A stretch of DNA of 64,000 bases from Opitutales bacterium (lineage in GTDB: Bacteria; Verrucomicrobiota; Verrucomicrobiia; Opitutales; JAFGAQ01). The position numbers and the translations under genes were made by a program. The notes below the pieces were generated by a model. It ran no database searches and was not told the origin of the DNA. It worked only from the letters and a program-made list of their open reading frames with translations. Where the stretch lies: the NCBI GenBank assembly GCA_033813415.1, contig JAPXRV010000006.1, forward strand, positions 10,384 through 74,383, given 5' to 3'. Below are positions 2,769 through 64,000 of this stretch, one piece after another (within the stretch, counting starts at the first letter, position 1; each line of letters begins with the position of its first letter).

Positions 2769-3962
2769 TCAAGCCTCCTGAGCCTTGACACGCTCCACAA
2801 TTTTCCGTGCCGCGTCACTCAAGCTGTCAGCTGAATCATGGGCGATGCCGCTCTCCTTGAGGATCTGCTTGCCTTCGTTCACCTCACTACCTTCCAAGCG
2901 GATGACAAGCGGAATCGAAATACCCACGGCCTTGGCTGCTGCAGTCACGCCCTTGGCAATCGTCGCACAACTCATAATACCGCCGAAGATATTGACGAGA
3001 ATACCCTTCACCTTCTTGTCGGAAAGGATGATGCGGAATGCCTCGGTCACCTGCTCAGTGGTTGCACCACCGCCAACATCCAGGAAATTCGATGGATTAC
3101 CCCCGAAGTGCTTGATGATGTCCATGGTCGCCATTGCAAGCCCGGCACCGTTGACAAGACACGCAATATTTCCCTCCAAAGCAATGTAGCTCAGGCCCCA
3201 CTTGGAAGCCTCAATCTCGCGGGGGTCCTCTTCGTTCAGGTCACGCAAAGCCACAATCTCAGGATGCCGGAATAATGCGTTGTCATCAAAACTCACCTTG
3301 GCGTCCAGCGCCTGAAGTTCGCCCTTTTCTGAAATGATCAGTGGATTGATTTCAACCATGGAGCAATCCTTCTCGATGAACAGCCGGTAGAGCCCATTGA
3401 GCAATTTGTCTGCCTGCTTCACAAGATCGCCTTCAAGCCCAAGCGCATACGCCACGCGCCTGCACTGATACGGTTGCAGGCCAATCCCGGCATCCACCGG
3501 AACCCGGATAATTTTCTCTGGAGTATCCGCTGCAACCTGCTCGATCTCAACGCCACCTTCAGTGGAAGCAATGATGATCGGGTTGGACGTCTCCCGATCC
3601 ATCAGGATCGCGAGGTAGTACTCTTTGCAAATCTTACAGGCCCCTGTGAAATAGACCGTCTTGACCATTCGACCCGCAGGTCCAGTTTGCTTCGTGATCA
3701 AGGTATTTCCCAGCATGCGCTTGGCCATCTCGGCGCCTTCACAGCAGGAATTCGCCAGCTTTACCCCACCCTTGTAACCATCGGCAAATGTTCCCTTCCC
3801 TCTGCCTCCAGCATGGATCTGAGCTTTTACGACAATGGTGTCCACGCAAATGCGCTCCAGAGCCGGACCTATATCCCCGGCATCCTGAACAGCGATGCCC
3901 GTTCCACAGGCAACACCATATTGGCCAAACAATTCCTTGGCCTGGTATTCATGAATGTTCAT
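2769..3962 (-). CDS. sucC: Succinyl-CoA synthetase beta subunit
   Basis: [13 protein letters not shown]-terminus, an ATP-grasp region, a GG-rich CoA-ligase C-terminal part, and adjacency to sucD. Confidence 0.92.
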
Positions 3963-4199: not shown

Positions 4200-7100
4200 T
4201 CAAACCGCTATGCCGGAGTTCCTTACGATACTGGAACGCACCCGGATGAGCTCCTCCTTGAGAATATCGATCCGGACCGGCTTCTCAACAAAACCATCCA
4301 TACCGGCATCGGAACAAACTTTCCTGTCCAACTGAGTCACACCAGCTGTCATGGCAATTACCATCGGCTGCCGCTCCGGAGGCAGGTTCTGGCGGATCAG
4401 ACGCGTCGCCTCCAATCCATCCATTTCGGGCATCTGGACATCCATCAGGACGATATCGTATGCGCCTTCGCGCACCTTATCGACAGCCACCTTCCCGTTC
4501 TCGGCAAGATCCGCCACCAGGCCGATGCGCTTGAGCAACAGCATAGCCACTTTCTGGTTCACCGGGTTATCCTCAGCCAGAAGTATCTTGAGCCCATCCA
4601 GATTGACAGCGGAATCTATTGCAGGCGCCGCCGGAGACGGGGCTGTGGATGATTTGTCGTCAACGGATCGCAACCCGATCCTTTCCAATATCTCCGCCAT
4701 CAAGTGTAGCCTCGCGGGCTTGCGCACAAAATACACCCCACCCCAATTGGTCTGAGGATTGACCTCTTTTGTGAGTATCACGATTGGAGTGTGCTCAACA
4801 AACGAAAATCCTCTTATAAAACATATCAGATCATCTAATTTTATTGGCATGTGGTGCATGTCCACCACGATCGCCATCAACCCCGCAGGTTTTTTCTCCT
4901 CCAAAACCGTGACAGTCGTCCAGTCGGGGCTGTAATCGCAACGTAGGCACAGAGTGCGCATCAGGCACTTCAATGCCCGTTCGGCTGGAATCGACGAAGC
5001 AATACACCAAACATCCCTACTCCGAAAGCCGCTGTTGAACTCTCTGGACTTGAAATCCATATCCTGAGGCAAAGAAACCTCAAAGCTGAACAGCGAGCCT
5101 TTCCCTGGTTCGCTTTCCAAATGGATGTCGCCACCCATCAGCCAGACCAGATTGCGGGAAATGGACAACCCCAATCCCGTTCCACCATATTTCCGTATAT
5201 TGGAGTCCTCGACCTGGTAGAAGGGCTCGAAGAGCATCCGGACTTTCTCCTCCGGAATCCCGATGCCTGTGTCGCGAACCTCAAAATAGACTTTGTCAGG
5301 ATGGAGCGGATCGTTTGCACGACGCACCACCACCCGCACCTCGCCCTTCTCAGTGAACTTGATGGCGTTTCCGATCAGGTTGATCAGCACCTGACGCACC
5401 CGGGTAACATCCCCGATCCGGAAATCGCCAACATCCGGGCACATCTCGAAGGAGAGATCCAAATTCTTCTGCTGGGCACCAAAAGCGAGAAGATCCATCA
5501 CATCCTCAACGCAGGTTCTCAGATCAAACGAACTGTTCTCAAGCTCAAGCTTACCTGCCTCAATCTTAGAGAAGTCGAGAATCCCATTCAGAATGCTCAG
5601 CAACGATTCACCTGAACTTTTGATAGTGTGAAGAAAAGCCGCCTGCTGCGAATCCAGCTTCGTCTGATCCAGAAGCGCACACATCCCAATCACACCATTC
5701 ATCGGAGTGCGTATTTCATGGCTCATCGTAGCAAGGAAGCGCCCTTTTGCGATTGAAGCCGCCTGCGCCTCACCCTTTAGCCTCTCGGAAATATCAAGCG
5801 ACTCCCTAAGCTCGCGGTTGCGTTCCTCAAGTTCTGAAGCCTTGTGCAATACCTCCTGAGTCCGGCGGTCGACCTCTTTCTGCAGCTCCGTGTTCGAATA
5901 CCGAAGTCGGGCCTCACGGAACACCACCCCCAGATGGATCAAGAGATAGGCCAATAGAACATACCCGACATAGGCCCAAATCGACTTGAACCAAGGCGTC
6001 CGGATCATAAAAGCGAAATGCACGGTATCCGAACCCACAAATTGGGCATCCCTGCCGTGAACATAAAACATATGTTTTCCGGGGCTCAGGTTGTTGTATT
6101 CCTTTGAATGCTGCGGACGGAAATGCAGCCATTCCTTTTCGTGTCCCTCCAGAAAAAACTGGTATGTGTTGCGCTCCGGCTGCAAATATTGATCCAGAAC
6201 AAACTCAAAGCCCAGATTCCTGACCGTCGACGGCAAAACCATTTCCGGCAGTTCGTTATCAACTGTTATGTCCGCCGCGAGAACCGCTCCGGAATCCAGA
6301 TCCACCACCCGGCGCAGAATCGTCTTCGGCTTAGGGGAAACGGGCGCACTGTCCGGTTGAGGAAACACATAAAGAACTCCATTCAACATTGCGTAGGCAT
6401 CTCCAACAGGAGTCTCAACAAACGCACCCACTCTATTGTCCATGGTTTCTCCGAAGTACTCAATCATCATACCGGGAGTACTCGCCGGCACAGGGTGCAG
6501 ATTCGCGAGTCCATCATTCCGCGAGACCCATCGGCTGCCATCTTCCAAAGCCAACTCCTGAGAATAGTAAAACGGACCTTCCCCGGGAAAATAGGCAACC
6601 TTACGATTGGGTTCAAAGCGACCCCTTGCCCGATCATACTCCAGCATCTCCGTTCCAAACACAAATACCCGGTCTCCCACGATCAAGGGATTCACCCACC
6701 CCATGGGAACCCCCTGTGCCTGAGCCAGAACCTTCAAATCCTCCAACTGCCCACTTCCCGGATTCTTCGACACCAAACCAACCCTGTTTTCACCCATCCT
6801 TATCCATAGATTCCCGAGAGTATCTTCTCCTAGCCCATGGACGATACCGTCTTCCGTAAAAACAGGCTCAAAATCTCCCCAACCGTCCGGCCCTTTAACG
6901 ATCCTGCTCAATCCGCTGTATCCCCCAACGTAAGCCACTCCAGGCTCAACCATGGAGGCAATAACCAGCGACCGATCCGAACCTGCACCACGAGCATCCA
7001 TGCCGTCGGCAGATGGAATGAACAAACCGGAGAAGGCTCCTATCAGCACATCCCCATCAACGACTGCCATCGTACGGGTGGAACTACCCATATCCAATCG

Positions 7101-56086: not shown

Positions 56087-57847
56087 ATGGCCAGCCGGAA
56101 ATCCAACACCGATAAGACTTCAAAAACATCCACCGCCAATATCGGCTTCGAGGCAAAGCTCTGGCTCGCCGCCGACAAGCTGCGCAACAACATGGACGCG
56201 GCGGAATACAAGCACGTCGTCCTGGGGCTGATCTTCCTCAAATACATCTCCGACACCTTTGAGGAACACCGCTCCAAGCTGCTGACAGGGGAAGGGGACT
56301 ACGAAGGAGCAAACCCCGAAGATCCAGACGAATACAAGGCTGAGAACGTCTTCTGGGTGCCTTCCGAAGCCCGTTGGTCGTATCTGCAGGCCAACGCCAA
56401 ACAACCCACCATCGGAAAGCTGGTGGACGATGCCATGGTTGCCATCGAGCGCGACAACCCACGCCTCAAGGGTGTGCTGCCCAAGGACTATGCGCGGCCA
56501 GCGTTGGATAAACATCGGCTGGGAGAGTTGATCGACTTGATTGGTAGCATCGAGCTTGGAGACCGCGCACCCTCACCCCAGCCCTCTCCCAGCGGGAGAG
56601 GGAGCGAAGACGGCCTCCCCTCTACCACTGGGAGAGGGGTCGGGGGTGAGGGTGGACCGACCCACAGATCGGTAGATCTGTTGGGGCGTGTCTATGAGTA
56701 TTTCCTCACCCGCTTTGCATCTGCCGAAGGGAAAAACGGTGGTCAGTTCTACACACCCTCCTGTATCGTGCGCCTGCTGGTGGAAATGCTGGCTCCCTAC
56801 AAAGGACGCATCTACGACCCATGCTGTGGTTCCGGTGGCATGTTTGTGCAGTCCGAAAAGTTTGTAGAGGCTCACGGGGGACGTCTGGGCGACATCAGCA
56901 TCTACGGGCAGGAGAGCAATGCCACCACCCGCCGCCTCGCCATCATGAACCTCGCGATCCGCGGCATCGAGGCCGACTTCGGCTCCGAACACGCCGACAC
57001 CTTCCGCCGCGACCTGCATCCCGACCTCCGTGCCGACTACGTGCTCGCCAATCCACCCTTCAACGACAGCGACTGGTTCCGCAAGGACGACGATGTGCGC
57101 TGGGCTTACGGCGTCCCACCCAAGGGCAACGCCAACTTCGCCTGGGTACAGCACTTTATCCACCACCTCGCCCCCAACGGCTTGGCAGGCTTCGTCCTTG
57201 CCAACGGCAGCATGAGCTCCAATCAGTCCGGCGAAGGCGACATCCGCAAAGCCCTCATCGAGGCTGACCTTGTGGACTGTATGGTCGCTTTGCCCGGACA
57301 GTTGTTCTACTCCACGCAAATCCCTGTGTGTCTGTGGTTTCTAAGTCGCGATAAGTCCGGGCGACCACCCTCATCCCCGACCCTTCTCCCAAAGGGAGAA
57401 GGGAGGAAAGCGGGAACCGATAGGCGCAAACAAACGCTGTTTATAGATGCAAGAAAGCTGGGCACGCTGATCGACCGCGTCCACCGCGAACTGACTGAAG
57501 CTGACTTGGAGAAAATCACCTCCACCTATCACCTCTGGCGTGGTGACCCTCACCCGACCTCTGGCCACCCTCTCCCAGCGGGAGAGGGACGGGGTGAGGG
57601 CGAATCCATGCACTATCAAGATGTTGCCGGCTTCTGTAAGTCGGCGACTACTCAGGAAATTGCTGGGCATGGATTCGTGCTCACACCAGGTCGCTATGTG
57701 GGAGCCGAGGAAGTCGAAGACGACGGCGAACCCTTTGACGAGAAGATGCCCCGCCTCATTGCCGAACTGGAGGCGCAGTTTGCCGAGTCTGCCAAGCTGG
57801 AACAGGCCATCCGCTCCAACCTCAAAGGACTCGGTTTCGGAGGATGA
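56087..57847 (+). CDS. hsdM: Type I restriction-modification system, DNA methyltransferase subunit
   Basis: HsdM_N ([38 protein letters not shown]), [13 protein letters not shown] and catalytic NPPF. Carries three in-frame low-complexity inserts that coincide with palindromic DNA elements. Confidence 0.93.
56568..56655. repeat. Nested palindromic mini-element ('ccctcacccc...gggagaggg' family) inside hsdM, in-frame
   Basis: Outer arms caccctcacccc (56568-56579) / ggggtgagggtg (56643-56654). Inner hairpins ccctctccc-agc-gggagaggg (56582-56602) and cccctct...agagggg (56617-56639). Translated as [30 protein letters not shown]. Confidence 0.85.
57365..57406. repeat. Palindromic mini-element, second in-frame copy in hsdM
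   Basis: ccaccctcatccccga + cccttctccc-aaa-gggagaaggg (57381-57403). Translated as [15 protein letters not shown]. Confidence 0.8.
57547..57600. repeat. Palindromic mini-element, third in-frame copy in hsdM
   Basis: ccctcacccg (57547-57556) ... ccctctccc-agc-gggagaggg (57568-57588) ... cggggtgaggg (57590-57600). Translated as [18 protein letters not shown]. Confidence 0.85.
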
Positions 57848-57850
57848 ATC

Positions 57851-58792
57851 ATGGCAGACCCCCTTTCCATCATCCCCTTGAGCAACATCAAACCGCTGAT
57901 TTACACCATTCGCGGGCAACAGGTCATGCTCGACAGCGACTTGGCGGAAATCTACGAAGTGGAAACCAAGTTTTTCAACCGTGCGGTGAAACGCAACATT
58001 GAGCGTTTCCCTGACACATTTCGATTTCAGCTGACCCAAGAGGAATATGATAGCTTGCGGTCACAATGGGTTACCCCAAGCCCAGACGATTCTTTAAGGT
58101 GCCAAATTGGAACCTTAGAAAAAGAAGGACGCGGACAGCACAGGAAGTATTTGCCCTACGCCTTCACCGAGCAGGGTGTGTCCATGCTCTCAGCTGTTCT
58201 ACGGAGCGACACGGCGATCAAGGTCAGCATCCAGATCATCAACGCCTTTGTCGAGATGCGCCGCTTCATCCAGGGCAGCGCGAGTCTCTTCGCCCGTCTG
58301 GATTCAGTCGAGAAGCGCCAGCTCGCCTTGGAAACCAAAACCGCCGAAAACTTCGAAAAAGTCTTTCAGGCACTCGAAGCTTCCGCACCGCCCAAACAAG
58401 GCATTTTCTACGATGGGCAGGTTCACGATGCCCACGTTTTCGCTTCCGACCTCATCCGCAGTGCGAAAAAGACCCTCATCCTTATCGACAACTACGTCGA
58501 CGATACCGTGCTCACGCTCCTGACCAAGCGGAAGCAAGGGGTCACCGCCAGCATCTTTACCAAGAGCATTTCGAAGCAACTCGCCCTCGACCTCGAAAAG
58601 CACAACGCACAATACCCGCCCATCGAGATCAAGACCTTCAAGGACGCCCACGACCGCTTCCTCATCCTCGATGAGCGCGACATCTACCACATCGGTGCCT
58701 CTCTCAAGGACCTCGGCAAAAAGTGGTTCGCCTTCTCCAAATTCGAAACCGGAGCCCTCGACATGCTCAAAAAACTGGGGGAAGGAAAATGA
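57851..58792 (+). CDS. ORF6N (KilA-N-related) domain protein
   Basis: IRGQQVMLDSDLAEIYEVETKFFNRAVKRNIERFPDTFRFQLTQEE is the ORF6N signature. The C-terminal domain ends ...AHDRFLILDERDIYHIGASLKDLGKKWF. Starts 4 nt after the hsdM stop. Confidence 0.8.
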   Translation: MADPLSIIPLSNIKPLIYTIRGQQVMLDSDLAEIYEVETKFFNRAVKRNIERFPDTFRFQLTQEEYDSLRSQWVTPSPDDSLRCQIGTLEKEGRGQHRKYLPYAFTEQGVSMLSAVLRSDTAIKVSIQIINAFVEMRRFIQGSASLFARLDSVEKRQLALETKTAENFEKVFQALEASAPPKQGIFYDGQVHDAHVFASDLIRSAKKTLILIDNYVDDTVLTLLTKRKQGVTASIFTKSISKQLALDLEKHNAQYPPIEIKTFKDAHDRFLILDERDIYHIGASLKDLGKKWFAFSKFETGALDMLKKLGEGK

Positions 58793-59016: not shown

Positions 59017-59105
59017 GTGAAGAGTGAAGTTAGAAAAGTGAAAACGGCATTGGCCATCTGCTTTGGAGTCTTTCACCATTCTGATTTCACTCTTCACTCT
59101 TCAAC
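59017..59105. repeat. Second palindromic element family ('gtgaagagtgaa...ttcactcttcac'), intergenic copy upstream of hsdS
   Basis: Left arm gtgaagagtgaagttagaaaagtgaaaac, right arm gtctttcaccattctgatttcactcttcactcttcaac. A half copy lies at 58807-58845. Confidence 0.8.
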
Positions 59106-59119
59106 AGGAGGGCTGGGTT

Positions 59120-60481
59120 ATGGCGGGTGAATGGAAAATATCGCGATTGGGCAATTGTGTCACCCATCAAAAGGGGTTCGCCTTTAAGTCTTCGGACTAT
59201 CGGCCAAGTGGGCACCCTATCATTCGGGTTTCGAACTTCACCGACCGGTCAATCGACATGGCCGAGTGCAGCTATTTGGACCACGACACGGTTCAGCAAT
59301 ACGAAGACTACAAACTCAGGCACCGTGATGCCGTCATTGCGACCGTTGGATCTTGGCCGACAAATCCAGCTTCTGTCGTGGGGAAAACCATCTGCGTTCC
59401 GGAGAAGGCGGAAGGCGCTCTCCTGAACCAAAACGCTGTTCGCTTGCGAACAAAGGCAGACCTCGACCAACGCTTCCTGTTCTACTTGCTGAAGCAGCCA
59501 GACTTTCAGACCTACATCGTTGGGACTGCGCAAGGCAGCGCAAGTCAGGCGAGCATTACCCTTAGCGACATCTTCGGATTCGAGTTCCAATGCCCACCCC
59601 TCCCCGAGCAAAATGCGATTGCGGGAATACTTGGGGCGCTGGATGACAAGATCGAGTTGAACCGGCGGATGAACGCCACGCTGGAGGCGATGGCACGGGC
59701 ACTGTTTCAATCGTGGTTTATTGATTTCGATCCAGTCCGGCGAAACATGGATCGAAACGGGCAACCCACGCAACAAAGTAAAACAGGAAGCGTGAAGCGT
59801 GAAATGGAACCGCCTTCCGCCATTTCTGATTTCACTTCTCAATCTTCCCACTTCGACTCCCTCTTCCCCGCGAGCTTCCAAGACTCCCCCCTCGGCCCGA
59901 TTCCGAAGGGGTGGCGAGTTGCCTCGATCTACGAAATCGCAGATGTAATATATGGTGCTCCGTTTGCCTCATCTCTTTTCAACTCGGAGAGAGTTGGAAA
60001 GCCACTGGTTAGAATCAGAGACTTACCCAGTGAAAGCCCAGGAGTTTTCACGACTGAAGAGCATCCTAAAGGATACTTGCTTAAGCCTGGCGACATTGCC
60101 GTCGGGATGGACGGTGAATTCCGAGCCTACATTTGGGCAGGCGTGGAATCGTGGCTAAATCAGCGAGTCTGTGTCTTCGCACCGAAGCCCGGATTTTCCG
60201 CCGCATTTGTTCGCAATAGTATCATCGCCCCCCTCGCTCAAGTTGAAGCTACTGAGACCGCGACAACCGTGATTCACCTTGGCAAAAACGATATCGACCG
60301 CTTCACCGCGATCCTCCCTTGTGCGTCTGTTGCTGAAGCGTTTACTCGTCTATGCCAGCCGTGGTATGAGAAGATTGTCACCAACAAACAGCAATCCCGC
60401 ACCCTCGCAACCCTGCGCGACACGCTGCTTCCGAAGCTGCTGAGCGGAGAAATCTCCACCTTATCGATCACAATCAACTGA
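59120..60481 (+). CDS. hsdS: Type I restriction-modification system, specificity subunit
   Basis: Two target-recognition domains separated by the conserved helix PPLPEQNAIAGILGALDDKIELNRRMNATLEAMARALFQSWFIDFDP, with a C-terminal LRDTLLPKLLSGEI. Start trimmed to MAGEWKISRLG at 59120. Confidence 0.88.
   Translation: MAGEWKISRLGNCVTHQKGFAFKSSDYRPSGHPIIRVSNFTDRSIDMAECSYLDHDTVQQYEDYKLRHRDAVIATVGSWPTNPASVVGKTICVPEKAEGALLNQNAVRLRTKADLDQRFLFYLLKQPDFQTYIVGTAQGSASQASITLSDIFGFEFQCPPLPEQNAIAGILGALDDKIELNRRMNATLEAMARALFQSWFIDFDPVRRNMDRNGQPTQQSKTGSVKREMEPPSAISDFTSQSSHFDSLFPASFQDSPLGPIPKGWRVASIYEIADVIYGAPFASSLFNSERVGKPLVRIRDLPSESPGVFTTEEHPKGYLLKPGDIAVGMDGEFRAYIWAGVESWLNQRVCVFAPKPGFSAAFVRNSIIAPLAQVEATETATTVIHLGKNDIDRFTAILPCASVAEAFTRLCQPWYEKIVTNKQQSRTLATLRDTLLPKLLSGEISTLSITIN
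59787..59854. repeat. 'gtgaag' family palindromic element inserted in-frame in hsdS after the central conserved helix
   Basis: gaagcgtgaagcgtgaaatgg ... ccatttctgatttcacttctcaatcttcccacttc. Translated as GSVKREMEPPSAISDFTSQSSHF. Confidence 0.75.
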
Positions 60482-60489
60482 ATGAACCA

Positions 60490-60717
60490 ATGCCGATACT
60501 ACCTAAGGAACAACCGCTCCAATCAATTCCAAAACCGCTGACTAAGGAGGATATCGATAATATCTTCTCTGTCCTTCATTTGGAGTCAGAAAATCAACGA
60601 GAGCGATTCCGAGTCATGTCCGAGGACAACAAACGTTCGGAAGTAAAATCGACTACACTTTGGCTACCTGGAACACCTGATTTTCAACAAGAAAACCAAG
60701 GAGTATCCCATGCCTAA
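60490..60717 (+). CDS. Small hypothetical protein (75 aa), upstream partner of the Clp-fold protease
   Basis: Starts 8 nt after the hsdS stop and ends 8 nt inside the next ORF. An AAGGAG RBS for the next gene lies within its 3' end. No family recognised. Confidence 0.45.
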   Translation: MPILPKEQPLQSIPKPLTKEDIDNIFSVLHLESENQRERFRVMSEDNKRSEVKSTTLWLPGTPDFQQENQGVSHA

Positions 60718-61597
60718 TTGGAATGAGTTGCTCAACGAGGTGAAAGCACTTGGGAGTGCGCATGATGTGCTTAGGCGGAAGTATTTGAGGCAGCTACATG
60801 AGCTTACGACGCGCAATGTCATCGTCTACTGCAGCGGCTGGCTGCAAAAACAGGGCGTCTCTGGAGGCGGAATAAATGACGAAGATAAGAACGGATTCAT
60901 GAACGCAGTCAACGGACTGGATAGATCCCTAGGCTTAGATTTGGTGCTGCACACCCCTGGTGGTGAAACCGCAGCAACCGAATCTTTGGTCGATTACCTG
61001 AGGCAGATGTTTAATGGCAACATCCGAGCAATTGTTCCCCAACTTGCGATGTCGGGTGGAACGATGATATCGTGTGCTTGTAAGAGCATCTTGATGGGCA
61101 AGCAATCTAGCCTCGGTCCGGTTGATCCGCAGTTTAACGGAATTCCAGCTCATGGCGTTCTTGAGGAGTTCAATAGGGCTCGCGATGAGATACGAGTAGA
61201 CCCGTCAAAGATTCCTGTTTGGCAGCCAATCATCGCAAAATATTCCCCGGCCTTTATAGGCGAGTGCCAAAAGGCTGTCTCGTGGTCTGAAACACTTGTT
61301 CGAGAATGGTTAGCTACCGGAATGCTAGCCGAAGACGCAAAACGGGCCGAGAAGATTGAAAGGATTGTTGAAGAGCTGACTAACCATGCTCTGTCACTTT
61401 CCCATGCACGCCATTTGTCCCCTGCAACATGCGTAGAAATGGGATTGAAAGTCGATATGCTCGAAGACGACCAAAGACTGCAGGACGCGGTTCTGAGCCT
61501 GCACCACGCCTACATGCTGACCATGTCGCAAACGGCAGCATTCAAGATCATTGAGAACCACAAAGGGGCTGCGTTTATTAAGTCCGCTCAGGTTTAG
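60710..61597 (+). CDS. ClpP/crotonase-fold serine protease of the SDH ('serine dehydrogenase proteinase')/S49-like type
   Basis: NVIVYCSGW..., LDLVLHTPGGETAATESLVDYLRQMF and AIVPQLAMSGGTMISCACKSILMGKQSSLGPVDPQ. This matches my recollection of SDH-family Clp-fold proteinases. No signal peptide. Confidence 0.7.
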   Translation: MPNWNELLNEVKALGSAHDVLRRKYLRQLHELTTRNVIVYCSGWLQKQGVSGGGINDEDKNGFMNAVNGLDRSLGLDLVLHTPGGETAATESLVDYLRQMFNGNIRAIVPQLAMSGGTMISCACKSILMGKQSSLGPVDPQFNGIPAHGVLEEFNRARDEIRVDPSKIPVWQPIIAKYSPAFIGECQKAVSWSETLVREWLATGMLAEDAKRAEKIERIVEELTNHALSLSHARHLSPATCVEMGLKVDMLEDDQRLQDAVLSLHHAYMLTMSQTAAFKIIENHKGAAFIKSAQV

Positions 61598-61741: not shown

Positions 61742-63694
61742 ATGATCGACATCCAATCCATTGCTGATCTGGAACTTCTGCGAGAGTCCGTTGACCTTGA
61801 GTGTAAGCTTGCGGCTGGACGCGATGGCAGGGGAGCGTTGCCCGAGGATTTCTGGCCAACCTACAGTGCGTTTGCCAACACGGAAGGGGGAATCGTTCTG
61901 CTGGGCGTCAGGGAGAAACAGGGGCAGTTCATCGTCGAGGGTGTAGGGAACGTAGCCAAGGTGCGGAAGGAACTGTTCGATGCCCTGAACAACCGACAGA
62001 AGGTGAGCAGCAACCTGCTCACCGATTTGCAGGTGCGGGAAATCCAGCTCGAAGGTCGGTTGGTCATCGTGGTTGAAATCCCGCGGGCGACACGCAAACA
62101 ACGCCCCGTATATCTGACAACCAATCCGTTTGCTCAACACACCTTTCGTCGCCTGAACGATGGGGACCGTCCACTGCCTGACGACGAGGTCAAGCGGATG
62201 TTAGCGGAGCAAGTGGAAGACAGTCGGGATGATCGAATCCTGCGCGGCTATGACCTGGAGGACCTCGACCTGGCAACCTTTCGAGCCTATCGGCAGGTCT
62301 TCGCCAATCGTGACCCAAACCACCCTTGGAACGTGTTGCCTGACGGTGAGTTTTTGCGCCAAATCGGTGGCTGGCGCAAGGATCGCGAGACCGCTGAGAG
62401 CGGCATCACCCTTGCGGGATTACTCATGTTTGGTCAGATGGTTGCGATCCAGGAGGAGCTGCCAAACTACATGCTCGACTATCAGGAGCGAGCTGAGGTG
62501 AATACGGAGCGGCGCTGGGTGGATCGGCTGACTCTGGACGGGAAGTGGTCCGGTAATCTGTATGACTTTTACCGTAAGGTTTATCTGAAGCTGACGGGAG
62601 AGCTGAAGGTGCCGTTCTCGCTTGAGAGGGGGGAGCGAAAGGATGAAACACCGGTCCATGAAGCCCTTCGTGAAGCGTTGGCAAACACATTGGTGCATGC
62701 AGACTACTCGGATCGTGCTTCGGTGCTTGTTGTGAAACGCCCGGATATGTTCGGCTTCCGCAATCCAGGATTGATGCGCATTCCCGCTGACATAGCCATT
62801 CAAGGAGGCGAGCACGACTGTCGTAACCGGACCCTACACAAGATGTTTCGGTTTGTAGGTGTGGGTGAACAAGCAGGCTCCGGAATTCCCAAAATCTATC
62901 AAGGTTGGGCGAGTCAGCACTGGCGGGCTCCAGCCCTTTACGAGCGGATCGAACCCTACAATCAGACGCGCCTTGAGTTGCGGATGGTGGATTTGCTGCC
63001 AGCGGTAGTCGTGGCTGCTCTCCGGAAGGCGTTCGGAGCAAAATTTGATGCCCTCGGGCAGAATGAGCGACTTACTCTCGCTGCAGCAACTTCTGAACGG
63101 GTGGTGACTCATGCCCGCGTGCGGGAAATGACAGCACTGCATCCTTTTGACCTGACTCGGATGCTGCAAAACCTCGTTCGGGACGGTTTTCTGAAAACGC
63201 ATAATGCGGGGCGAGGGGCGGTCTATTGTTTACCTGGGGCCGCTCTACCCAAACCGGAAGAAGTGTTCGGAGTGGGCTCCGAACATTCCATGTCTACCTC
63301 CGCACATTTGACTGAAAGCTCCGCATATTTGGCGGAAGTATCGATGAACGACGAGCATCGAGATGCCAACGGTTGCCTGCTGGCTAATCAACTCGATGCG
63401 CCTGTGATCGATTCCTTGGAGAGACTGATTCCAGCCTATCGTGAGCAACTTGAAAAACTTGCGACCCAGCCAAGAACCAAAGGAAAGCTGCCTGTTGAGA
63501 CCATGAAGGCAGTGATTCTTGCCGTCTGCTCAGGCCACTACGTGACGCTGAGTTGCCTTGCCCAACTCGTGAACCGGGATCCGGATGCGCTCAGGCAGCA
63601 ATACCTTAAACCATTGGCGAAGGAAGGTGTGTTGCGATTGCCCTTTCCCACGGCTCCAACTCACGGCAAACAAGCTTATCGCACCGTTGATTGA
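61742..63694 (+). CDS. Schlafen/AlbA_2-type DNA-binding domain + HATPase_c_4-like domain + C-terminal wHTH protein
   Basis: ESVDLECKLAAGRDGRGALPEDFWPTYSAFANTEGGIVLLGVREK (AlbA_2 'divergent AAA' signature). Mid-region ALREALANTLVHADYS...GSGIPKIY. 650 aa. Confidence 0.8.
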   Translation: MIDIQSIADLELLRESVDLECKLAAGRDGRGALPEDFWPTYSAFANTEGGIVLLGVREKQGQFIVEGVGNVAKVRKELFDALNNRQKVSSNLLTDLQVREIQLEGRLVIVVEIPRATRKQRPVYLTTNPFAQHTFRRLNDGDRPLPDDEVKRMLAEQVEDSRDDRILRGYDLEDLDLATFRAYRQVFANRDPNHPWNVLPDGEFLRQIGGWRKDRETAESGITLAGLLMFGQMVAIQEELPNYMLDYQERAEVNTERRWVDRLTLDGKWSGNLYDFYRKVYLKLTGELKVPFSLERGERKDETPVHEALREALANTLVHADYSDRASVLVVKRPDMFGFRNPGLMRIPADIAIQGGEHDCRNRTLHKMFRFVGVGEQAGSGIPKIYQGWASQHWRAPALYERIEPYNQTRLELRMVDLLPAVVVAALRKAFGAKFDALGQNERLTLAAATSERVVTHARVREMTALHPFDLTRMLQNLVRDGFLKTHNAGRGAVYCLPGAALPKPEEVFGVGSEHSMSTSAHLTESSAYLAEVSMNDEHRDANGCLLANQLDAPVIDSLERLIPAYREQLEKLATQPRTKGKLPVETMKAVILAVCSGHYVTLSCLAQLVNRDPDALRQQYLKPLAKEGVLRLPFPTAPTHGKQAYRTVD

Positions 63695-63700
63695 TCAGCC

Positions 63701-64000
63701 ATGACCCTCACCGAATCCAACATCGAAGACGCTGCCCTGGAGTGGTTCAAGGAACTCGGCTACTCCATCGGGCATGGACCCCAGCTTGCACCGGGTGAGC
63801 ATGCCGGAGGCACCCTCACCCCGGGGGAGAGGGAGTCTTATGCGGATGTGGTGCTGGTGGGACGCTTGCGCAGTGCGATCCGGCGGCTGAATCCGGCCAT
63901 TCCCGAGGAGGCGCGGGAAGAGGCATTGAGAAAAGTGCTGCGGGTGGGGACGCCGGCGCTGGTGCAGACGAACCGCGCCTTTCATCGGATGCTGCGCGAC
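63701..64000 (+). CDS. hsdR: Type I restriction enzyme R subunit, N-terminal part (continues beyond window)
   Basis: MTLTESNIEDAALEWFKELGYSIGHGPQLAPGE...VVLVGRLRSAIRRLNPAIPEEAREEALRKV is a typical HsdR N-terminus. The frame is open to the end of the window, which is why the ORF track has no entry. Confidence 0.88.
   Translation, partial: MTLTESNIEDAALEWFKELGYSIGHGPQLAPGEHAGGTLTPGERESYADVVLVGRLRSAIRRLNPAIPEEAREEALRKVLRVGTPALVQTNRAFHRMLRD

Follow-up and report, generated by a model that had tools for sequence, protein, structure and literature searches.

Three palindromic segments translated as part of HsdM, the methylase subunit of a type I restriction-modification (RM) system, were found in a 64,000-nt stretch of DNA from an Opitutales bacterium (contig JAPXRV010000006.1 of assembly GCA_033813415.1, positions 10,384 to 74,383; this whole stretch is called the window below). 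Judged by its sequence, the repeat that forms them is the already described BoxC / PIT / TMECO "triplex motif" and not a new repetitive extragenic palindromic (REP) sequence or miniature inverted-repeat transposable element (MITE). The three inserts, together with a remnant in the hsdR gene of the same operon, are very probably units of this motif that occupy variable sites of an HsdM family and are tied to a cassette encoding a DUF559 endonuclease, the in-frame copies having been kept by selection. Insert 1 is such a cassette without its open reading frame (ORF), and single or closed units make up inserts 2 and 3.

The hsdM inserts are units of the BoxC/PIT/TMECO motif

The host gene hsdM (56087-57847, plus strand) is an intact ORF of 586 aa with Pfam matches to HsdM_N (3e-28) and N6_Mtase (5e-102) and with the methylase motifs I (GSGGMF) and IV (NPPF). 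The original prediction had described three palindromic in-frame segments in this gene, and all three lie where it placed them, with the frame unbroken. The recurring unit, of about 34 nt, reads CCCTCACCCC-NN-CCCTCTCCC-NNN-GGGAGAGGG, and so combines a 9-bp GC hairpin (CCCTCTCCC-N3-GGGAGAGGG) with a third arm, which is GGGGTGAGGG on one strand and CCCTCACCCC on the opposite one. When up to three mismatches were allowed, the inner hairpin had five matches in the 64 kb against 0.05 expected, and none of the shuffled sequences reached five. The matches lie at 56582, 56618, 57382, 57568 and 63813, all in the hsdM or hsdR ORFs, and the remaining ~56 kb of the window holds no other copy of the hairpin, in agreement with the earlier statement that the element is absent from the rest of the window.

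Insert 1 (56568-56655, plus strand) consists of two units head to head with 8 nt between them. Its left unit (56568-56605) has the C-arm CCCTCACCCC at 56570-56579 and the hairpin CCCTCTCCC-AGC-GGGAGAGGG at 56582-56602, and is an exact match to the TMECO pattern on the minus strand; the right unit (56614-56655) is inverted, with its hairpin at 56618-56638 (one mismatch) and the G-arm GGGGTGAGGG at 56643-56652. Insert 2 (57365-57406, plus strand) is one degenerate unit, with C-arm CCCTCATCCC and hairpin CCCTTCTCCC-AAA-GGGAGAAGGG, translated in a different frame from insert 1. Insert 3 (57546-57600, plus strand) is a closed composite unit in which a C-arm (57547-57555), a 12-nt spacer, a hairpin (57568-57588) and a G-arm (57591-57600) follow one another. 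Inserts 1 and 3 both have (A)CCCTCACCC(C) at their start and GGGGTGAGGG(T) at their end, which makes them short sequences with terminal inverted repeats and no ORF of their own. Hairpins are predicted at the RNA level as well, with folding energies of -69.3 kcal/mol (z -6.45) for insert 1, -21.3 kcal/mol (z -2.9) for insert 2 and -35.2 kcal/mol (z -2.8) for insert 3. Because nothing in the inserts reached the Rfam threshold, there being only sub-threshold matches to generic miRNA hairpins, they are not a described RNA family.

The hsdR copy, CCCTCACCCC-GGG-GGAGAGGG (63811-63835, plus strand), which had been noticed as a related half-element, is a real remnant that reads TLTPGERE and has lost 12 nt of the hairpin. 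A complete unit stands at the homologous codon position of a Methylomirabilis hsdR (L078), relative to which the window copy is 12 nt shorter and in frame, and an hsdR from another metagenome (L124) carries the identical remnant.

The TMECO pattern was defined as CCCTCNCCC-N3-6-GGGNGAGGG-N3-GGGNGAGGG, with 23 copies in E. coli K-12 that are "always located intergenically" and 3610 copies in 262 proteobacterial genomes; the motif forms a stable triplex in vitro, and its loci are enriched in small deletions (Holder et al. 2015, PMC4666352). It has also been described as a G-quadruplex-hairpin (HPGQ) motif (Kaplan et al. 2016, PMC5100583), and neither of the two studies established an origin or a partner protein. 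In our scan, in which the second loop was relaxed from N3 to N2-5, the pattern was found exactly twice in the window (56570-56602 on the minus strand and 57568-57600 on the plus strand), where none is expected by chance, and exactly in 192 of 206 fetched loci. The other window units are degenerate, with one or two mismatches or a missing arm. The window unit sequences agree with the copies in Table 1 of Holder et al. 2015, and the published motif's four G-tracts are present on their G-strand.

When one genome per species was scanned, the unit, with its 28 specified bases, occurred in at least 120 genomes with unrelated flanks on both sides, bearing out the dispersal implied by the original prediction; by our own calculation, about 1e-5 matches to 28 fixed bases would be expected in the ~1.2e12 positions. 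Among the matches listed, the carriers belong to Pseudomonadota, Verrucomicrobiota, Planctomycetota, Chloroflexota, Acidobacteriota, Myxococcota, Omnitrophota and other phyla, and include Pseudomonas, Enterobacter, Klebsiella, Citrobacter, Acinetobacter, Variovorax, Geomonas and Akkermansia. These counts bear on the simplest alternative, that the inserts are native low-complexity linkers, ordinary Pro/Ser/Gly-rich loops whose palindromy is a by-product of codon choice. The segments do lie at variable sites and are biased in composition, but the same 28 specified bases recur in at least 120 unrelated, mostly non-coding contexts, one DNA unit read in different frames gives different peptides at the same site, and the inner hairpin is found 5 times where 0.05 are expected. 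Native linkers are thus virtually untenable, and we rejected them, as well as a chance origin, on the numbers of hairpins and of unrelated contexts. The proposal that a REP/MITE-like element has colonised the coding sequence is supported in its core, the segments being copies of a dispersed, hairpin-forming repeat that came to lie within the gene and has lasted there in frame only; the element is not new, being BoxC/PIT/TMECO, and it lacks the hallmarks of REP sequences.

One of the loci, from Pseudomonas crudilactis (L001), has three units (421-756, 2918-3108 and 6444-6631) arranged in tandem with a period of 151-152 nt. Within the same 8 kb there are two matches to C4 antisense RNA (RF01695) and to c4-a1b1, which are P1/P7-type phage immunity RNAs.

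The three sites vary in occupancy across an HsdM family

The closest solved HsdM, 3KHK (E 8e-131), aligns on either side of the inserts, and relative to it insert 1 falls in the unaligned inter-domain linker, insert 2 opposite a 14-residue gap and insert 3 opposite a 19-residue gap. The inserts are absent from homologues at ~80% identity, and the baseline length of the family can be put at ~500-520 aa because plasmid-borne relatives match over ~1.5 kb of DNA. The nearest 120 homologues (74-99% identity) come from Verrucomicrobiota, Gammaproteobacteria, Cyanobacteria, Desulfovibrionales and Kiritimatiellia, and the family is therefore horizontally spread. Their length varies exactly at the three insert sites, namely the inter-domain linker (site 1), between CLWFL and TLFIDAR (site 2) and after TYHLW (site 3). 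A conservative peptide pattern detected repeat-type peptides in 54 of 117 homologues at site 1, 51 of 115 at site 2 and 53 of 117 at site 3; in the census of ~117 at site 1, five homologues hold a DUF559 domain and 39 are short enough to be empty.

Across the homologues a site may be empty or hold one unit, whose orientation and frame vary, a closed unit, two inverted units, or such an inverted pair enclosing a DUF559 ORF, and comparison at the DNA level shows different unit types, orientations and reading frames at one and the same site. The site of insert 2, for example, has a G-type unit in L206, a closed composite in L205 and the full DUF559 cassette in P0186, L178, L203, L158 and L160, and the site of insert 3 has the full cassette in P0142, L144, L192 and L200. 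The alignment of orthologues thus gave what the original prediction anticipated, presence and absence at exactly three sites with the DNA palindromy retained. An allele from another metagenome (L123), 99.06% identical, differs by one clean in-frame indel of 51 nt, as a result of which its insert 3 lacks the C-arm and hairpin but retains CGGGGTGAGGG. Between window hsdM and L123 there are 13 synonymous against 3 non-synonymous codon differences, which, with the intact catalytic motifs, shows purifying selection on the gene. From the gaps against 3KHK and the variability of the sites, we infer that the sites are surface loops.

In some of the homologues P0001-P0120, the three sites bear other hairpin-repeat peptides (CHSGESRNP, SESLRASASPRE, LNSQPSTLN, TKNKEPGTKNP). 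It appears that small repeats in general collect at these sites.

The repeat units bound a cassette that encodes a DUF559 endonuclease

Five HsdM homologues of 708-730 aa have a ~118-aa DUF559 / MTES_1575 domain (Vsr-like PD-(D/E)XK) exactly between the halves of insert 1, where the protein reads -[HYRGGYDF...]-LPSPxGRGAGGEG. At the DNA level, L122 reads cgcgCACCCTCACCCCAGCCCTCTCCCAGCGGGAGAGGGAGC-[ORF]-CTCCCCTCTCCCGGTGGGAGAGGGGCCGGGGGTGAGGGTGG, and the window has both units with only GAAGACGG between them. At 38 of 38 positions the left unit of insert 1 agrees with the left end of the L122 cassette, and the right unit is near-identical to its right end, CTCCCCTCTCCCGGTGGGAGAGGGGCCGGGGGTGAGGGTGG. 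The 8-nt spacer GAAGACGG (56606-56613, plus strand) takes the position of the ~345-nt DUF559 ORF of full cassettes and is similar to the spacers found 5' of HYRGG in L125, L134 and L132 (gaagaagcg, gaagag and aagag). Because the units match the L122 ends and the ORF is replaced by 8 nt, insert 1 is the ORF-less form of the cassette; that it reads as the two ends of a DUF559 endonuclease cassette was missed by the original prediction.

The full cassette, ~440 nt as the sum of its parts, has the layout ACCCTCACCCC-hairpin-spacer-[HYRGG...DUF559]-hairpin-GGGGTGAGGGT, with the repeats as its terminal inverted repeats. The 5' end is (A)CCCTCACCCC-NN-hairpin-AG, followed by 6-9 nt and then CAYTAYCGNGGNGG, and the 3' end is CTCCCCTCTNCCNNTGGGAGAGGGGCCGGGGGTGAGGGT. 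These ends are crisp, with unrelated host sequence outside them at at least 12 distinct sites, and the cassette is translated through within HsdM, HsdR or HsdS at at least 12 sites. A protein search with the domain only yielded 92 matches, many of them short gene fragments, in which the host, where present, is a type I RM gene; the cassette with its flanking repeat-coded peptides was found among them at HsdM sites 1, 2 and 3, at a fourth HsdM site and at several HsdR sites. Between them, the hosts read the upstream unit in every one of the three frames, yet the spacer keeps DUF559 in frame, and the DUF559 ORF is always in frame with the host. Across unrelated hosts the distance from unit to domain is constant at 7-13 nt, and the orientation is constant as well.

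The same units flank free-standing DUF559 copies that have their own start codon, in two arrangements. In the free-standing copies L183 and L188 the layout is reversed, with the arms near the ORF and the hairpins distal, 50-70 nt away, and the arm is GGGGAGAGGG and not GGGGTGAGGG. The E. coli K-12 DUF559 gene ycjD (L121, NC_000913.3 1349500-1352500), the sole K-12 DUF559 gene checked, ends in a degenerate hairpin, CCCTCTCCCTGAAAGAGCGAGGG (..RSPSP*), with the stop codon in the loop, and a BoxC unit (TMECO no. 9) lies ~150 nt downstream of it in the fabI-ycjD spacer.

Several states of the element are seen together in the HsdR of L124 (1273 aa): beside the remnant there are one solo unit, a pair without the ORF and a full cassette, which lies within the SWI2/SNF2 domain, so that the Pfam order is HSDR_N, SWI2_SNF2, DUF559, SWI2_SNF2. 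The window hsdR, which breaks off at ..TNRAFHRMLR, very probably continues as in L124, whose operon is 97-99% identical. In the literature on DUF559, ycjD, MTES_1575 and BoxC we found no paper tying DUF559 to these repeats, although coverage was incomplete and a prior description is possible.

The repeats flank a conserved endonuclease gene in loci chosen without them

The association was measured in 80 metagenome loci chosen by DUF559 peptide patterns alone ([FAL]KFRRQHQ and FG[DNR]Y[IV]xDF[YF]), with no repeat sequence used. A hairpin lies within 150 nt upstream of the DUF559 domain in 60 of 75 loci, within 150 nt downstream in 67 of 78, and on both sides in 50 of 73, against a background in far-flank sequence of 0.022 per 150 nt (41 hairpins in 283,549 nt). 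At 47 of the 80 loci the frame stays open for at least 80 codons past the DUF559 domain on at least one side, and 18 of 20 such ORFs searched with Pfam are HsdR, HsdM, HsdS or an M-S fusion. In the host ORFs Pfam finds PF04480 (DUF559) and PF18741 and no transposase family, so the flanked gene is not a REP-associated tyrosine transposase (RAYT); in 20 host ORFs there is no Hint or intein family either, the flanks being 11-14-aa repeat-coded peptides. The converse idea, a DUF559 gene beside every repeat unit, was rejected, as DUF559 of this subfamily lies near only 2 of 120 loci selected by the repeat.

Predicted, unvalidated targets of programmed inversion show an enrichment of 'DUF559 domain-containing protein' and 'Endonuclease domain-containing protein', with odds ratios of 14.3 and 9.6 (Milman et al. 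2023, PMC9881135). That enrichment could reflect inverted units flanking DUF559 genes.

Comparison of profile A3 with solved structures gave a strong match to 3HRL (DUF559, E 1e-26) and a weak one to 3R3P, the catalytic domain of I-Bth0305I (E 0.0085). Alignment A3 shows no variation at the putative catalytic residues D55, E66 and D68 and almost none at H72, and the dN/dS of embedded DUF559 domains is 0.05-0.13, indicating strong purifying selection. The proportion of synonymous differences (pS) is higher in the cassette than in the adjacent host in 10 of 12 usable pairs, for example 0.61-0.89 against 0.24-0.48 in HsdM; these are short regions near saturation, and the difference weakly suggests that cassette and host have different histories.

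The purifying selection keeps alive a co-option reading, in which DUF559 is a useful accessory module of type I RM systems, for example an extra nuclease or a mismatch-recognising domain, that has been shuffled by recombination, the units being its linker-coding ends and the hsdM inserts leftover linkers. This would accommodate the low dN/dS and the conserved D55, E66, D68 and H72, as well as the confinement of all embedded cassettes with a recognisable host to type I RM genes and the presence of the ORF in the host frame whatever frame the upstream unit takes. It accords poorly with at least 12 insertion points across three subunits, with presence and absence that differ among close homologues, with the existence of ORF-less pairs, with the same flanking units on free-standing DUF559 genes, with units by the thousand in intergenic DNA, and with a synonymous divergence greater in the cassette than in adjacent host sequence in most usable pairs (10 of 12), and we consider such domain acquisition improbable.

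In-frame copies in other genes

Units lying in frame were also found elsewhere among the at least 120 loci, where the test for coding was that domain matches lie on both sides. Units with Pfam domains on both sides occur in LysRS (L109), in the radical-SAM protein YgiQ (L028), in Tex (L085) and in an HsdR that has two (L118). The LysRS unit (4313-4346 of L109) lies between the OB (anticodon-binding) and catalytic domains; it adjoins a second, AT-richer repeat (cgaatttcggattgcgaatttcgaattgc) that is likewise between the two domains. The length of stop-to-stop ORFs was rejected as a coding test because it is uninformative, 87% of random positions in GC-rich loci falling in ORFs of at least 200 aa.

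Inspection of the unit shows that all three frames of the C-rich strand are free of stop codons and that one frame of the G-rich strand contains a TGA. As five of its six frames are open, it can be read through, giving PSPxPSPxGRG, PHPxPLPxGEG or LTPxLSQRER according to frame. Our search of the literature, which was incomplete and leaves a prior description possible, found no earlier report of in-frame BoxC/TMECO copies.

Peptides encoded by the arms also occur as intragenic tandem repeats in L204, L138, L194 and protein P0143 (GEGVCKDIG three to four times, GSHGRGQGEG three times, GHSEGEG five times). The ends of the unit seem to seed such repeats.

Origin and retention of the inserts

On the reading we prefer, the units would have entered hsdM and hsdR by a DNA-level process tied to the cassette, and an ORF-less pair such as insert 1 would be either a relic left after deletion of the ORF or a target that had not been invaded. 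Selection would have retained only in-frame copies at permissive, probably loop, positions, after which the hairpins would promote small in-frame deletions like those of the L123 allele and the hsdR remnant. HsdM probably tolerates the Pro/Ser/Gly/Glu/Arg-rich peptides as flexible loops, with no host function required. DUF559 may be what mobilises the repeats. A wider proposal, to which we give somewhat less than an even chance, is that BoxC/PIT/TMECO repeats, unexplained since the 1990s, would serve a family of selfish DUF559 (Vsr-like) endonuclease elements as cis-acting ends or targets, similar to REP/RAYT or homing systems, in which the cassette would be the autonomous form, specialised on type I RM genes, and solo or paired units, including the three in hsdM, would be non-autonomous derivatives or landing pads.

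Several observations weigh against the explanation by cassette-linked entry into hsdM and hsdR. With only 2 of 120 repeat-selected loci near a DUF559 gene of this subfamily, most units are solo. Neither a consistent target-site duplication nor a conserved target was found, be it at the sites in the window or, in 32 loci, at the ends of the cassette, and movement of the units was not observed. The K-12 motif was reported as always intergenic and without a link to mobile elements (Holder et al. 2015, PMC4666352). Other repeat families are found at the same HsdM sites, so that tolerance instead of targeting may account for the choice of site. Finally, the loop location is unconfirmed in three dimensions, as an AlphaFold2 model of HsdM (alignment A1) had a mean pLDDT (predicted local distance difference test score) of 41.7 and was unusable.

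Some of these points are also what one would expect if the units were independent colonisers, spreading by a mechanism of their own (repair or template switching at hairpins, for instance, or a transposase yet to be found), and DUF559 were a separate homing gene that lands in inverted pairs, in which case the hsdM inserts never held an endonuclease. Solo units far outnumber DUF559 genes (3610 units in 262 genomes), an ORF-less pair with a short spacer is equally compatible with a relic and with a target not yet invaded, and the sites accept other repeat families. Set against this, the constant 7-13-nt distance and the constant orientation across unrelated hosts point to one integrated element. 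We regard independent colonisation as unlikely but worth keeping in view. It differs from the explanation by cassette-linked entry in the order of events alone, and the present data cannot separate the two.

The host RM operon

Downstream of hsdM, the operon continues with an ORF6N gene (57851-58792), hsdS (59063-60481), a gene for an SDH/ClpP-like serine protease (60710-61597), a gene for a Schlafen AlbA_2 and HATPase_c_4 protein (61742-63694) and the start of hsdR (63701-64000, plus strand), which runs past the window edge; the ORF6N, protease and Schlafen genes are accessory genes within the RM operon. The gene order is the same in L123 and L124, which come from other metagenomes and are 97-99% identical to the window. 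Since homology to these two loci ends ~460 nt 5' of hsdM, the operon is found in differing contexts.

The window hsdS has, in its central conserved region, an insertion of ~30 aa that is not derived from the repeat (GQPTQQSKTGSVKREMEPPSAISDFTSQSS). L165, L171 and L172 have a DUF559 cassette at this place, and in the hsdS of L124 two repeat units stand just 3' of it, starting the segment that is unalignable with the window.

Significance

The element itself is known; what appears unreported are its in-frame copies and the DUF559 cassette with these ends. The near-obligatory pairing of the repeats with a conserved endonuclease gene offers a concrete candidate for where the repeat family comes from, and a role that can be tested for DUF559 proteins, E. 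coli YcjD among them. After the Rickettsia palindromic elements (RPEs), this is another case of palindromic repeats lying in frame inside proteins, including the essential LysRS. Type I RM subunits commonly hold read-through selfish inserts, and an odd length or domain in such a subunit need not mean a pseudogene or a novel fusion. The peptides PSPxPSPxGRG and PLPxGEGRGEG are translations of the repeat, and hypothetical proteins dominated by them may therefore be spurious ORF calls.

Comparison with known systems

The window repeats and published BoxC/PIT/TMECO have the same sequence, the window units corresponding to the 'type B' copies of E. coli, and both are multi-copy with unrelated flanks, frequent inverted pairs and small local deletions. 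As published, the motif is intergenic in K-12, was counted in proteobacteria only and has no link to a gene or mobile element, whereas here it lies in frame in genes, occurs in many non-proteobacterial phyla and flanks a DUF559 ORF. The five window copies are all in ORFs and hence not intergenic, but intergenic location is a reported property of the E. coli copies and not part of the definition of the family.

RPEs and intragenic copies of the enterobacterial repetitive intergenic consensus (ERIC) are MITE-like repeats inserted into ORFs without breaking the frame (Ogata et al. 2000, reviewed in PMC10969869). The likeness lies in the persistence of small palindromic repeats as in-frame, read-through inserts at permissive positions; RPEs are unrelated in sequence, ~150 bp long and found in Rickettsia only, whereas the present units are ~34 nt, occur across phyla and have a protein-coding parent cassette. 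The inserts also resemble MITEs, in that inserts 1 and 3 are short and non-coding with terminal inverted repeats, but they have no target-site duplication. A possible parent with identical ends exists in the DUF559 cassette, although DUF559 is not a known transposase.

With REP/REPIN-RAYT systems the cassette shares a single-copy enzyme gene between two inverted hairpin repeats and many scattered solo or paired copies. The enzyme here is a Vsr-like PD-(D/E)XK endonuclease (PF04480) and not a Y1 HUH transposase, and the cassette lies in frame in its hosts. No GTAG/CGTC tag is conserved in the aligned copies and their flanks, the units starting with CCCTCACCCC and ending with GGGAGAGGG-AG or -GG.

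Vsr-like (EDxHD) homing endonucleases such as I-Bth0305I (PMC3239194) are likewise sporadic endonuclease inserts at fixed sites of conserved, horizontally moving genes. The presence of DUF559 at HsdM site 1 is sporadic in this way (5 of 117, with ORF-less pairs or empty sites in the others), and the absence of target-site duplications and the existence of ORF-less forms also recall a homing cycle. The ShiLan insertion in a phage DNA methylase (PMC11855218) is similarly read through in frame and is neither intron nor intein, but its HNH is out of frame, whereas DUF559 here is in the host frame. The cassette differs from homing endonucleases in having no intron or intein scaffold and in its terminal inverted repeats, its subterminal hairpins and its many sites.

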